A DNA stretch of 64,000 nt, taken from contig CALKCL010000005.1 in NCBI GenBank assembly GCA_938082545.1, positions 23,677-87,676 on the forward strand. Reading direction: 5' to 3'. This DNA comes from an uncultured Gammaproteobacteria bacterium (GTDB taxonomy: Bacteria; Pseudomonadota; Gammaproteobacteria; Ga0077536). This document shows, piece by piece, positions 20,711-25,968 of the stretch (the first letter of the stretch is position 1; every line of letters begins with the position of its first letter). The position numbers and the translations under genes were made by a program. Below the pieces are notes generated by a model. That model had not been told where the DNA came from. It was given only the letters and a program-made list of their open reading frames with translations, and did no database searches.

Positions 20711-20739
20711 AAGTGCTCGGCGTTGCCGAGCACTTTTTT
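20711..20739 (+). terminator. Rho-independent terminator
   Basis: AAGTGCTCGGC-gtt-GCCGAGCACTT followed by TTTT. Confidence 0.85.
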
Positions 20740-20753
20740 CACTTGCTCTAAAA
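20740..20753 (+). promoter_or_regulatory. CACTTGYTCTAAAA box, third copy
   Basis: CACTTGCTCTAAAA matches 13 of 14 positions of the box upstream of both sRNA-like units. A TAAAAT -10-like hexamer lies 43 nt downstream (20783-20788). Confidence 0.35.
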
Positions 20754-22645: not shown

Positions 22646-22730
22646 CCAGAGATTGTCTCCATAAAGAAAGCACGTTAATTACCTAAATGTCTACAGTACT
22701 TAAATTGAATAAGGGGAGTGTTTAAAATTC

Positions 22731-24992
22731 ATGAAAATTACAGCCTATGCAGATAAAACAAGTGTCGCACCTGATGAAACTATTAACTTCATGGTCAACT
22801 GTAATGCCAAGGAGTTTAAAGCAGACTTTGTAAAGTTAATTTGCGGAGACATGAATCCAGACGGGCCTGGCTATCAAGAAAAAGTCATCCGAACTAAAGC
22901 AACTGGCACCTACCCAGGCAGAAAGCAGACTATTTATGCCGGATCATTTGTTCAAATCGAAGACAACGAAAAATTTAATCAAATTGAAAGCTTTACTTTA
23001 AAGGCGTTCATTTGGCCAACCACCCCAAATAAAGGGCATCAAACCATTATTAGCAACTGGTCAGAAAAAGATCAAAATGGTATGTCACTGGACATTAGTC
23101 CTAACAACAAAGGTCTGATGTTAACAATAGGTTCAGGATCTAATAAAGTTCAGTGTGTCGTCTCTGGGAAACCATTTTTGGAAAGAGAATGGTATTTTGT
23201 GGCAGCGACCTACAATGCAGCCACCAAGCGAATTACTCTGATTCAAGAGCCTTTGCATACGCACGCAAAAACACGCGACCGAAGTATTAAAAATGAAAAA
23301 GCCAAATTCGTCACGCCACCAAAATCAAATCGTCGGATCACTATTGGCGCGCAATTTAAAAGAACAGACAAAGGTCGCACGGTCTGCCAAAACTACTTCA
23401 ATGGTAAAATTGACAGTCCTCTTGTAGCCGCAAGAGCGCTAACAGCCAACCAAGTAGAACAACTCAAAACGGGCTACGATAAAATTAGAATGTCCAATGA
23501 CGTAGTTGCCGCGTGGGACTTCTCAACAGATATCTCTTCATTAAAAATTTCTGACATTTCTGGAAACAATATCCATGGGAAAGTTGTCAATATGCCAGTG
23601 AAGGCTATGACTGGCTGGAACTGGGATGGGGAAGAAATGAACTGGAAGCATGCGCCGAAACAATATGGTGCGATTCACTTTCACGATGATGATGTTCACG
23701 ATGCGGGCTGGGAAATAGATGTTTCATTGAAGGTCCCCAAGAATCTGAAAAGTGGCCTTTACGCTATCCGGCTCCGCGCCGGTAAAGATCTGACAGATGA
23801 AGACTACGTGCCGTTTGCTATTCTTCCCCCAAGAGGAAAGGTGACGGCTGATATCTGCTTCATCTTGCCCACCGCGACCTATATGGCATATGCCAATGAG
23901 CACATGGGTACCGACTCTCCCATAGCACAGCTACTTGGTGGTCGTCTTGTCGAACACGAAAGACAAGATCTCTACCGTAATGAGCACAGAGAATATGGAG
24001 CTAGTTGCTATGACACTCACACCGACGGCTCAGGGGTCTGCTACTCATCGCGACTTCGACCAATATTAAATATGCGACCAAAATATAAAAGCTGGCTGGG
24101 AGGAGAAGGCTCTACCCTATGGCAATTTAACGCAGACACGCATATTACTAACTGGCTTGAAGCTCAAGGCTATAATTACGATGTCATTACTGATGAAGAA
24201 CTTCACCACGATGGAGTCTGCGCCTTAGAAAAATATCGAGTAGTCCTGTCATCCTCTCACCCTGAGTATCATTCCAAAGAAATGTGGGACGCCATGTCGA
24301 CCTATCAAAAGGGCGGAGGTCGCTTAATGTATCTCGGTGCGAACGGATGGTACTGGCGTATTGCCTTTCATCAAGAAGCCGAAGGCGTCTTAGAAGTCCG
24401 GCGAGCAGAAGGGGGCATACGCGGCTGGGAAGCACAAACAGGAGAATATTATCACTCCTTTACCGGAGAATACGGTGGACTATGGCGACGAAATGGGAGA
24501 GCACCTCAAAAAATTGTTGGTACGGGGTTCACGGCACAAGGGTTTGACATCTCGTCTTACTACAAAAGGAACCCTGACAGTTTCAAAAAACCAGTCAAAT
24601 GGATAATGGATGGCGTCAAAGATGACGAGCTCATTGGTAACTTTGGACTTATTGGCGGAGGTGCTGCGGGACTTGAACTCGATCGTGCTGATACAAAACT
24701 AGGGACACATCCTGATGCATATGTACTCGCATCTTCCGAAGATCACACTGATCTATACTTAGTCGTTTGTGAGGAGCTCTTGATTAATTATCCCGGACTA
24801 GGAGGACAAGAGAACCGTCTCGTTAGAGCAGATCTTGTATTCTACGAGACGGATCAAGGTGGAGGCGTGTTTTCAACCAGTTCTATCGCATGGCCTGGGT
24901 CGCTTTCACATAATAATTATGACAACAACGTGTCAAAAATCACCAAAAACGTGCTTGATCGCTTTGTCGCAGAGGGCCCTCTGCTAGACTAG
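22731..24992 (+). CDS. N,N-dimethylformamidase beta (large) subunit-like protein, paralog 1
   Basis: 753 aa. Blocks GDMNPDGPGYQE, AAWDFS, QYGAIHFHDD, TATYMAYANE, SSRLRPILNMRPKY, SSHPEY, GLIGGGAAGLELDR and YDNNVSKITKNVL match my recollection of the DmfA2 family. Confidence 0.75.
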   Translation: MKITAYADKTSVAPDETINFMVNCNAKEFKADFVKLICGDMNPDGPGYQEKVIRTKATGTYPGRKQTIYAGSFVQIEDNEKFNQIESFTLKAFIWPTTPNKGHQTIISNWSEKDQNGMSLDISPNNKGLMLTIGSGSNKVQCVVSGKPFLEREWYFVAATYNAATKRITLIQEPLHTHAKTRDRSIKNEKAKFVTPPKSNRRITIGAQFKRTDKGRTVCQNYFNGKIDSPLVAARALTANQVEQLKTGYDKIRMSNDVVAAWDFSTDISSLKISDISGNNIHGKVVNMPVKAMTGWNWDGEEMNWKHAPKQYGAIHFHDDDVHDAGWEIDVSLKVPKNLKSGLYAIRLRAGKDLTDEDYVPFAILPPRGKVTADICFILPTATYMAYANEHMGTDSPIAQLLGGRLVEHERQDLYRNEHREYGASCYDTHTDGSGVCYSSRLRPILNMRPKYKSWLGGEGSTLWQFNADTHITNWLEAQGYNYDVITDEELHHDGVCALEKYRVVLSSSHPEYHSKEMWDAMSTYQKGGGRLMYLGANGWYWRIAFHQEAEGVLEVRRAEGGIRGWEAQTGEYYHSFTGEYGGLWRRNGRAPQKIVGTGFTAQGFDISSYYKRNPDSFKKPVKWIMDGVKDDELIGNFGLIGGGAAGLELDRADTKLGTHPDAYVLASSEDHTDLYLVVCEELLINYPGLGGQENRLVRADLVFYETDQGGGVFSTSSIAWPGSLSHNNYDNNVSKITKNVLDRFVAEGPLLD

Positions 24993-25035
24993 AGAATCTC
25001 GCAAAGGGCTTTGGAAGTTATGTTTCTTTTTTAGG

Positions 25036-25087
25036 AAAACACTTGTTCTAAAAAAAGTATTGCGGCGCAGGATACCGACACTATAAT
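25036..25087 (+). promoter_or_regulatory. promoter-like region of sRNA-like unit A
   Basis: The 18-nt box AAAACACTTGTTCTAAAA (25036-25053), then TTGCGG (25060-25065), a 16-nt spacer, then TATAAT (25082-25087). Confidence 0.45.
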
Positions 25088-25093
25088 TAGCCT

Positions 25094-25177
25094 TCCTTCT
25101 TGGTAATTCGACCTCCCCTCGAGTCCAAGTTGGAACCTCTCAAAAGAAGCCGGACCCCAGTGGTCCGGCTTCTTTTT
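25094..25177 (+). ncRNA. candidate sRNA A (~85 nt)
   Basis: No ATG inside. The hairpin AUUCGA-CCUCCCC-UCGAGU presents a C-rich loop. It ends in the terminator AGAAGCCGGACC-ccagt-GGTCCGGCTTCT plus TTTT (25145-25177). Confidence 0.45.
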
Positions 25178-25204
25178 CTACTAAAACATTTATTCCAAAA
25201 CAGA

Positions 25205-25256
25205 AAAACACTTGTTCTAAAATAATGTTGCAACGCAATATAATATTAGATAGAGT
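25205..25256 (+). promoter_or_regulatory. promoter-like region of sRNA-like unit B
   Basis: The same 18-nt box (25205-25222), then TTGCAA (25228-25233), a 17-nt spacer, then TAGAGT (25251-25256). The geometry matches unit A. Confidence 0.4.
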
Positions 25257-25262
25257 ATACGG

Positions 25263-25380
25263 GTCTGAGAAAACTTGTCCTCCCCTCAAGTTCTCAGACT
25301 GCCCAATTAGCAATTCGACTCCCCTCGAATCTAGCTGGGATTCTCCCCTAAACCGGACTTTCATAGTCCGGTTTTTTTTT
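25263..25380 (+). ncRNA. candidate sRNA B (~118 nt), a homolog of unit A
   Basis: No ATG inside. Two hairpins present C-rich loops (GUCUGAG..CUUG-UCCUCCCCU-CAAG..CUCAGAC and AUUCGA-CUCCCC-UCGAAU). The terminator is AAACCGGACT-ttcat-AGTCCGGTTT plus a T run (25350-25380). Confidence 0.45.
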
Positions 25381-25440
25381 GCTTCCTCCTAAAGAGACAC
25401 GCTAGAAACGAGTCGTTTTAAAAATCATTGCCTAAACGTA

Positions 25441-25968
25441 TTAACCGGCACCGCTGCGTTTTAACAACAACTCACATACCTCTCGCACTGCACCATGTCC
25501 CCCGACCCGATTACAGACGTAATCAGCATTAGCGACAATTTGAGGCAGTGCATCGTTCGGACATGCTGAGAAACCAACTGCAAGGATGGAAGCTAAATCA
25601 TTAATGTCATCCCCTACAAATGCCACTTCAGACATCTCTATATCCCATTCGTTAACAAGCCCCTCTAAAACCTGCAGTTTATCAGTGACGCCAGGGTAAT
25701 AGCTTTGAATGCTAAGTTTTTCCATGCGCGCGCGAGTAGGGGCATCGTCCTCACCAGTCATCACACAGATTAATACGCCTGTACTCTCCAAAAGCTGCAT
25801 TCCTTTGGCGTCTCGAGTGTCAAACTTTTTTAACTCAATACCTTGAGCTCCGTAATACATCCCACCATCAGTAAGAGTGCCATCAACGTCGACTACCAAA
25901 GCTCGAATCTTGGGTATGAGTCTCGCTGAGGATTGTGTAGCTTTTTTTCTATCAGTCATGATATTCAC
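25441..25968 (-). CDS. KdsC-family HAD-IIIA phosphatase
   Basis: 175 aa with VDVDGTLTDG and VGDDINDL motifs. Confidence 0.7.
   Translation of the reverse strand: MNIMTDRKKATQSSARLIPKIRALVVDVDGTLTDGGMYYGAQGIELKKFDTRDAKGMQLLESTGVLICVMTGEDDAPTRARMEKLSIQSYYPGVTDKLQVLEGLVNEWDIEMSEVAFVGDDINDLASILAVGFSACPNDALPQIVANADYVCNRVGGHGAVREVCELLLKRSGAG

Follow-up and report, generated by a model that had tools for sequence, protein, structure and literature searches.

A predicted family of tandem small RNAs with conserved, Shine-Dalgarno-complementary C-rich motifs in one order of mostly uncultured gammaproteobacteria

Introduction

The small RNA (sRNA) sX13 carries C-rich loops that repress mRNAs with G-rich ribosome-binding sites, a mode of action that has been established experimentally (PMC3771888). 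The same mode was proposed for the cuckoo/CcsR RNAs (PMC4615179, PMC8034643), and in a screen of 2,680 genomes the cuckoo RNAs were found only in Alphaproteobacteria (PMC4615179). Next to nothing is known about riboregulation in uncultured marine heterotrophs.

A preliminary description of a stretch of DNA from an uncultured gammaproteobacterium had pointed to a tandem pair of sRNA-like units with C-rich loops, lying downstream of a DMFase-like gene. We have followed up this description in the window (the whole stretch of 64,000 nucleotides) and in related genomes. By sequence comparison, the paired units are neither a chance duplication nor spare terminators, and they are predicted genes of an undescribed sRNA family, found across a single order of gammaproteobacteria that are for the most part uncultured and at least in part marine. 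Such a family offers a concrete handle on the control of enzymes that degrade amides and other nitrogen compounds.

Results

Sequence inspection located two homologous units on the (+) strand, unit A at 25033-25181 and unit B at 25201-25380, in the intergenic region between a 753-aa open reading frame (22731-24992, +) and a convergent one of 175 aa (25441-25968, -). Across their shared parts the units are 74% identical. The identical 18-nt upstream box that had been reported for both is indeed there, as an exact copy of AAAACACTTGTTCTAAAA at 25036-25053 and at 25205-25222, and its 16-nt core has exactly two occurrences in the 2.03-Mb assembly, in units A and B only. Promoter hexamers are likewise present, the -35 hexamer of unit A being part of an invariant TTGC-N3-GC element; since the spacer measures 16 nt in A and 17 nt in B, the spacings, which had been given as the same, are similar to within 1 nt and not strictly identical. 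The bodies (~88 nt in A, ~118 nt in B) are free of ATG, in agreement with the 85-118 nt proposed for them, and each unit ends in a strong Rho-independent terminator, as claimed (here placed at 25142-25177 and 25350-25380); the terminator of B was reported by a consensus scan, and that of A is a 15-bp stem seen in the fold. The 5' ends of both sRNAs are predictions from promoter geometry and the family alignment.

Both RNAs are predicted to fold stably, with minimum free energies of -40.8 (A) and -44.4 kcal/mol (B) and z-scores against dinucleotide shuffles of -7.4 and -6.9, respectively. The fold shows the C(C)UCCCC hairpin loops as they had been described (Table 1). The additional hairpin and the third single-stranded motif attributed to unit B were both recovered, the former being specific to the genus, and the account of unit A has to be amended, as it too has a second, degenerate copy of the motif in single-stranded form.

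Table 1. Positions of the predicted features in the window
Feature	Position	Strand	Remarks
Upstream box, unit A (AGGAAAACACTTGTTCTA)	25033..25050	+	degenerate form of the TGGAA-N9-TTCCA dyad of relatives; followed by an A-rich, UP-like tract
Predicted sigma70-type promoter, unit A	25060..25087	+	-35 TTGCGG 25060-25065, 16-nt spacer, -10 TATAAT 25082-25087
sRNA A, ~88 nt, predicted 5' end	25094..25181	+	long hairpin 25094-25134 with CCUCCCC loop, linker, intrinsic terminator
Loop CCUCCCC, sRNA A	25112..25118	+	closed by AUUCGA/UCGAGU
Single-stranded linker motif, sRNA A	25135..25141	+	ACCUCUC, degenerate; ACCUCCC(C) in relatives
Intrinsic terminator, sRNA A	25142..25181	+	15-bp stem 25142-25156 / 25163-25177, then U-rich tail
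Upstream box, unit B (CAGAAAAACACTTGTTCTA)	25201..25219	+	
Predicted promoter, unit B	25228..25256	+	-35 TTGCAA 25228-25233, 17-nt spacer, -10 TAGAGT 25251-25256
sRNA B, ~118 nt, predicted 5' end	25263..25380	+	extra 5' hairpin 25262-25300, family hairpin 25302-25339, linker, terminator
Loop UCCUCCCCU, extra 5' hairpin of sRNA B	25278..25286	+	
Loop CUCCCC, family hairpin of sRNA B	25319..25324	+	
Single-stranded UCUCCCCU, sRNA B	25342..25349	+	
Intrinsic terminator, sRNA B	25350..25380	+	10-bp stem and run of 9 T
AAGGGGAG, ribosome-binding region of the DMFase-like large-subunit gene (22731-24992)	22711..22718	+	candidate neighbouring target, weakly supported

The pair was found by blastn in 7/7 genomes of the genus (~2 Mb, 44% GC). 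The genus alignment shows no change in the C-rich loops, in TTGCG and TATAA, or in the box core ACACTTGTTCTA that precedes unit A, and the stems vary by compensation, for example from UUGG/CCAA to UUAG/CUAA. A covariance model (R1) built from 14 units of the genus finds full-length matches in other, high-GC genera, where they form tandem arrays of four copies (G064), five copies (G068) or, in several genomes of genera g18 and g4, two copies. A second model (R2), for which 39 distinct members were used, detects the family, at 37-92 bits, in 32 of the 81 genomes and 9 of the 18 genera of the order, and matches sRNA A with 70.1 bits (E 1.1e-13) and sRNA B with 69.1 bits over 25301-25379 (E 2.0e-13), the E-values of both home-built models being rough. 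Conservation in relatives, which the preliminary description had asked to be checked, was thus borne out by both kinds of search. The arrays hold 1-5 copies spaced ~180-260 nt apart. Among the genomes examined the order consists of one family only, with 81 genomes, mostly of 3-6 Mb, in 18 genera, and the loci read in other genera are high-GC, the sRNA matches themselves having ~60-68% GC. A model search of the rest of the class, in a sample of 400 genomes, gave only two weak matches, which are not clear homologues. Each of these (L059 1500-1585 (-) and L060 1500-1585 (-), from two unrelated gammaproteobacterial families) combines a terminator and a single-stranded C-rich stretch with a hairpin whose loop is C-rich as well, and the two short elements may be further, independent C-rich sRNAs.

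In a MAFFT alignment of the family, pairing is kept in 93.8% of cells in the three helices, and 14 of 21 base pairs show compensatory changes. The observed pairing and covariation values were reached by 0/500 shuffles, and when the partners were slid the paired fraction dropped to 23-47%. The pair is kept outside this genome and covariation extends to all three helices, which argues for homologous sRNA genes in tandem, as had been proposed. Across genomes of 43% to ~65% GC, CGA-CCUCCCC-UCG in the loop and GGGACCUCCCCUCG in the linker are near-invariant, and the conserved repeated unit is GACCUCCCCUCG, 12 nt long, which stands both in the hairpin loop and in the single-stranded linker. An exact-pattern search of public genomes gave matches only in uncultured marine Gammaproteobacteria and Proteobacteria (the MAGs/SAGs SI072_bin20, UBA4457, A_MB167 and AG-390-I23), apart from one in a Sphingomonas, which is a chance match. 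A metagenome scan for transcript-like contigs gave nine ordinary genomic contigs and none of transcript type.

Membership in a known RNA family was rejected on the strength of Rfam cmscan runs on the window and on the homologues, with gathering thresholds as well as permissive ones, in line with the preliminary description, whose author had recognised no known family. At the gathering threshold Rfam 15 returned only two tRNAs for the whole window. At E up to 10 the region 24900-25500 gave only terminator-driven, sub-threshold matches, the best being rli61 on the wrong strand (30 bits against a threshold of 50), and seven loci from five other genera gave no match at E up to 0.01.

Promoters were aligned for 22 upstream regions from eight genera. 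Invariant in all 22 are the -35 element TTGC-N3-GC and the T-A...T of the -10 element; the latter resembles TATACT/TATAAT, stands at a spacing of 16-17 nt, and an A-rich, UP-element-like tract lies upstream of the -35. Most copies also have a TGGAA-N9-TTCCA dyad centred near -52, which is degenerate in this genome (AGGAA-N8-TTCTA and CAGAA-N9-TTCTA), and copies internal to the arrays have the identical promoter type. At the level of sequence the members show features generally expected of trans-encoded sibling sRNA genes, namely paralogous copies with a promoter and terminator each, an intergenic position without a conserved open reading frame, and a covarying structure. Because each copy has its own conserved promoter and some arrays lie ~2 kb from the operon, the units are not mere spare terminators, and the counter-reading that had been set against the sRNA genes from the start, that they are only duplicated terminators of the upstream operon, fails.

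As to what might act at the upstream element, sigma54, LexA (Cheo box) and Fur boxes were considered and rejected, as neither spacing nor half-sites fit. An IclR-type regulator for the dyad is no more than speculative; no IclR_C domain was found in this genome. At the DMFase locus of a 5.7-Mb relative (G023; L061, 10935-16010) an IclR-type regulator is followed by a class IV aminotransferase, a 280-aa protein of no known function, DMF_alpha, DMFA2 and the sRNA. In this genome the operon has a fused CoA-transferase ahead of the two DMFase subunits, and its content therefore differs from that in G023. A search of six large relatives with the exact TGGAA-N9-TTCCA pattern yielded no recognisable regulon in common; the exact dyad stands at an sRNA promoter in four of the six. 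The only other recurring exact match is the identical 19-mer TGGAATTCGTGCAGTTCCA, found once per genome in G064, G068, G069, G023 and G009 (three genera), and probably lying inside a highly conserved gene. The box core occurs a third time in the window (CACTTGCTCTAAAA, 20727-20753), after the terminator that lies upstream of the CoA-transferase/DMFase operon. This third box (20740) is present in the near-identical genomes G000, G002 and G005 and has no conserved counterpart in clade 2 of the genus; shared regulation of operon and sRNAs is therefore unsupported.

The hfq gene (PF17209) was found in 76 of the 81 genomes of the order, including those of the other clade of the genus. It was not found in G000, G002 and G005, although G005 is 98% complete, and G000 gave no tblastn match to Hfq, CsrA or ProQ of E. 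coli. Hfq may have been lost specifically in this clade. Since hfq was not found there, the predicted RNAs of the clade would act without Hfq, like sX13 and 6C.

The exposed core UCCCCU/CCUCCCC mimics the anti-Shine-Dalgarno (anti-SD) sequence of 16S rRNA and is a perfect complement to AGGGGA(G). The proposal of anti-SD-like loops after the manner of Gram-positive sRNAs stands in so far as the SD-complementary motifs are conserved; the Gram-positive frame is an analogy only, because the host is a gammaproteobacterium. A GGGG run stands 4-22 nt ahead of the start in 5.4% of the genes of G000 and 5.6% of those of G003; the consensus is A-GGGG-A-(A/G), and most of the runs lie 4-12 nt from the start codon. 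By their letters, AGGGGA(G) sites should form 6-7 Watson-Crick pairs with the sRNA as against four, plus two G-U pairs, with the 16S tail. Ribosome-binding sites were the only places searched for G-rich partners.

GGGG is retained in the two clades of the genus in 33 of 1556 ortholog pairs between G000 and the whole of G003. Peripheral catabolic enzymes account for 20-22 of 30 annotated GGGG pairs, as compared with only 4-5 among 30 GGGG-free pairs drawn at random (Fisher p = 2e-4 to 5e-6), with categories that were assigned by the author after seeing the lists. The genes include those for amidase (two), hydantoinase A (two), luciferase-like monooxygenase (three), PQQ dehydrogenase (two), the DMFase large subunit, CoA-transferase III, an intradiol dioxygenase, an amidohydrolase, a CO-dehydrogenase-type flavoprotein and alpha/beta hydrolases, among others. 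Genome-wide in G000 and G003, the genes with GGGG sites were observed to be strongly biased to peripheral catabolic and not housekeeping enzymes, by the same after-the-fact categories. Ranking by duplex energy was unspecific, the DMFase gene coming 148th of 1856 and its paralog 41st. Target prediction with the C-rich seed, which had been suggested as a check, was run in a CopraRNA-like manner on the two genomes (1556 pairs); the top matches overlapped in 13 cases against four expected, and control seeds (16S anti-SD, reversed and base-swapped) reproduced this overlap, so that no signal specific to the sRNAs emerged. Between orthologs, other SD words are conserved as well as GGGG at ribosome-binding sites.

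In genera g1, g18, g9, g4, g7 and g12 an orthologous DMFase-like large-subunit gene (66-97% identity) lies upstream of the arrays, in the same orientation. The arrays adjoin it directly in g1, g18 and g9 and stand ~2 kb away in g4, g7 and g12; in G064 an unrelated gene lies between. The orthologue occurs without the sRNA in g16, g15 and g13. In a smaller first sample, GGGG was present in the ribosome-binding region of the DMFase orthologue in 13/15 genomes with the sRNA and 0/6 without it; in the larger one it was seen in 15/23 sRNA-positive and 1/12 sRNA-negative genomes, or, by genus, in 5/6 and 0/4 (p = 0.048); the correlation is weak and phylogenetically non-independent. Most g18 genomes have no G-run at the DMFase gene, though the sRNAs adjoin it. 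As a conserved target, the DMFase ribosome-binding site was thus rejected: the correlation weakened with more genomes, fails in most of g18 and is absent, outside the genus, for a second paralog. That the DMFase gene is an sRNA target is conjecture, and weakly supported. The second large-subunit paralog (49% identity) lies outside the window, on contig C7 of G000 (C7:60590-62950), and has orthologues in G001, G004 and G005. Its ribosome-binding site, AAAGAGGGGAGC, is retained in the two clades of the genus, whereas the sequences on either side have diverged, and it matches the sRNA motif CUCCCCUC over 8 nt; outside the genus, paralog 2 showed no correlation between GGGG and the sRNA.

Discussion

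We consider it fairly probable that the two units encode sibling sRNAs, paralogous and independently transcribed, that pair with SD sites of the AGGGGA(G) type and lower translation. Each gene would be transcribed from a strong sigma70-type promoter with an UP-like tract, under a TGGAA-N9-TTCCA-like dyad for a putative regulator, and end at an intrinsic terminator, and each RNA would present two or three UCCCCU/CCUCCCC cores, in loops and in the single-stranded linker. The cores would pair with G-rich SD sites better than the 16S 3' end does, and pairing would occlude the ribosome-binding site and reduce translation. Judged by analogy with sX13, SD occlusion is the most likely mode; the regulon and the neighbouring target are put forward as hypotheses. 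Candidate targets make up ~5% of genes, with amidases, hydantoinases, luciferase-like monooxygenases, PQQ dehydrogenases and the adjacent DMFase-like amidase among them, and the copy number of 1-5 per genome would set the dose.

A more far-reaching version, which we hold to be unlikely, is that the AGGGGAG SD serves as an address label on peripheral catabolic mRNAs, such that one dyad-acting regulator, together with gene dosage, throttles the catabolic periphery post-transcriptionally. The label would extend over amide, hydantoin, oxygenase and alcohol pathways and would be bound better by the sRNAs than by the ribosome. If this were true, streamlined marine gammaproteobacteria would have an RNA-only, apparently Hfq-independent analogue of catabolite repression.

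The same motif could in principle act on a protein. Like CsrB/RsmZ or CrcZ, the RNAs might be sponges in which GACCUCCCCUCG binds and titrates a C/U-rich-specific RNA-binding protein, an account that agrees with the unspecific base-pairing predictions and with features that are hallmarks of sponges: the conservation of 12 nt, beyond the 6-7 nt needed for SD pairing, the occurrence of the motif in two structural contexts per RNA and the multiplication of the genes up to 5-fold. We nevertheless regard it as improbable, as no candidate protein was found, as this genome has no detectable homologue of CsrA, Hfq or ProQ, and as the motif is an exact mimic of the anti-SD, pairing being the established mode in sX13, RsaE and the cuckoo RNAs (PMC3771888, PMC4615179). 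Even when pairing is accepted, the RNAs could activate translation or serve as decoys by binding G-rich elements elsewhere, such as an inhibitory hairpin in a 5'-UTR, another sRNA or a tRNA fragment. Nothing specific speaks for such a role, and both the position of the G4 motifs, at the canonical SD distance of 4-12 nt before starts, and the fact that all characterised C-rich-loop sRNAs of such architecture repress (PMC3771888) make it the least probable of the readings considered here.

Another account would deny the units their independence, in that they would belong to the DMFase operon, whether as RNAs from its 3'-UTR or from read-through or as its insulating terminators. The CcsR RNAs, where CcsR1-4 come from the RSP_6037 mRNA, are a precedent for C-rich siblings of 3'-UTR origin (PMC8034643); in g1, g18 and g9 the units directly follow the DMFase large-subunit gene in the same orientation, and no terminator lies between its stop codon (24992) and unit A. 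This origin is nonetheless very improbable, only a shade less so than the activator or decoy role, given that a TTGC-N3-GC / TATACT promoter invariably precedes each copy, including the internal ones of arrays with four or five members, that the dyad precedes most of them, that every copy has its own terminator, and that the array is separated from the DMFase gene by ~2 kb in g12, g4 and g7 and by an unrelated gene in G064.

Like the present family, the cuckoo/CcsR/ar14 (NfeR1) RNAs come in paralogous tandem clusters (up to nine copies in cuckoo) and have hairpins that expose an invariant C-rich anti-SD motif (PMC4615179). The cuckoo/CcsR RNAs also share with it a conserved link to one flanking gene, and CcsR1-4 modulate C1 metabolism (PMC8034643), while the family described here adjoins a DMFase-type (C1-amide) gene. 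The differences are in the motif, which is CCUCCUCCC in cuckoo and CCUCCCC / CUCCCC here; in the architecture, with 2-4 adjacent hairpins in cuckoo as opposed to one hairpin, a single-stranded copy and a terminator; in biogenesis, CcsR arising by 3'-UTR processing whereas each copy here has a promoter of its own; and in the locus and host, as cuckoo RNAs flank a DUF1127 gene (CIN1) and are alphaproteobacterial, whereas the flank here is DMFase-like and the host gammaproteobacterial. A match to ar14 was also absent from the cmscan output for 24900-25500 at E up to 10.

The sX13 RNA of Xanthomonas is closer in taxon, being gammaproteobacterial, and has CCCC/CCCCC loops, acts without Hfq and represses at or near the ribosome-binding site (PMC3771888). 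In addition, ~5% of Xcv genes have a G-rich motif at ribosome-binding-site distance, a share equal to that found here (PMC3771888). Unlike the present genes, that for sX13 is single-copy and lies at the polA locus in Xanthomonadaceae, and its RNA has three stem-loops (4C/4C/5C loops) (PMC3771888); sX13 has no tandem array, no invariant 12-nt motif and no sequence similarity to the family, and Rfam gave no match here.

Redundant sibling sRNAs are also known as PrrF1/PrrF2 in Pseudomonas and Qrr1-5 in Vibrio, and prrF1-prrF2 are, like units A and B, adjacent, with a promoter and terminator each and a shared regulator box. Their seeds, however, are not C-rich mimics of the anti-SD, their boxes for Fur and LuxO/sigma54 are unrelated to the present one, and there is no homology. 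The lhrC genes of Listeria are tandem siblings. In LhrC1-5, as in RsaE/RoxS of Firmicutes and the 6C RNA of Actinobacteria (PMC6486639), C-rich or UCCC motifs in loops or linkers pair with SD regions, and this is the likeness to the RNAs predicted here; these are Gram-positive families with Rfam models of their own, none of which matches the region at E up to 10. For RsaE/RoxS in particular, which is defined by the Rfam RsaE model with two C-rich conserved regions and by its occurrence in Firmicutes, no match was obtained and the host is a gammaproteobacterium.

Taken at the level of sequence, then, the kind of regulator is known and the predicted family is new, since it departs from each of the compared systems in their defining features of motif, architecture, locus, taxon and Rfam score. 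An Rfam entry for the family is feasible from the alignment made here. It is likely that C-rich anti-SD sibling sRNAs have arisen by convergent evolution, with the present family standing beside cuckoo/CcsR, sX13 and RsaE/6C.
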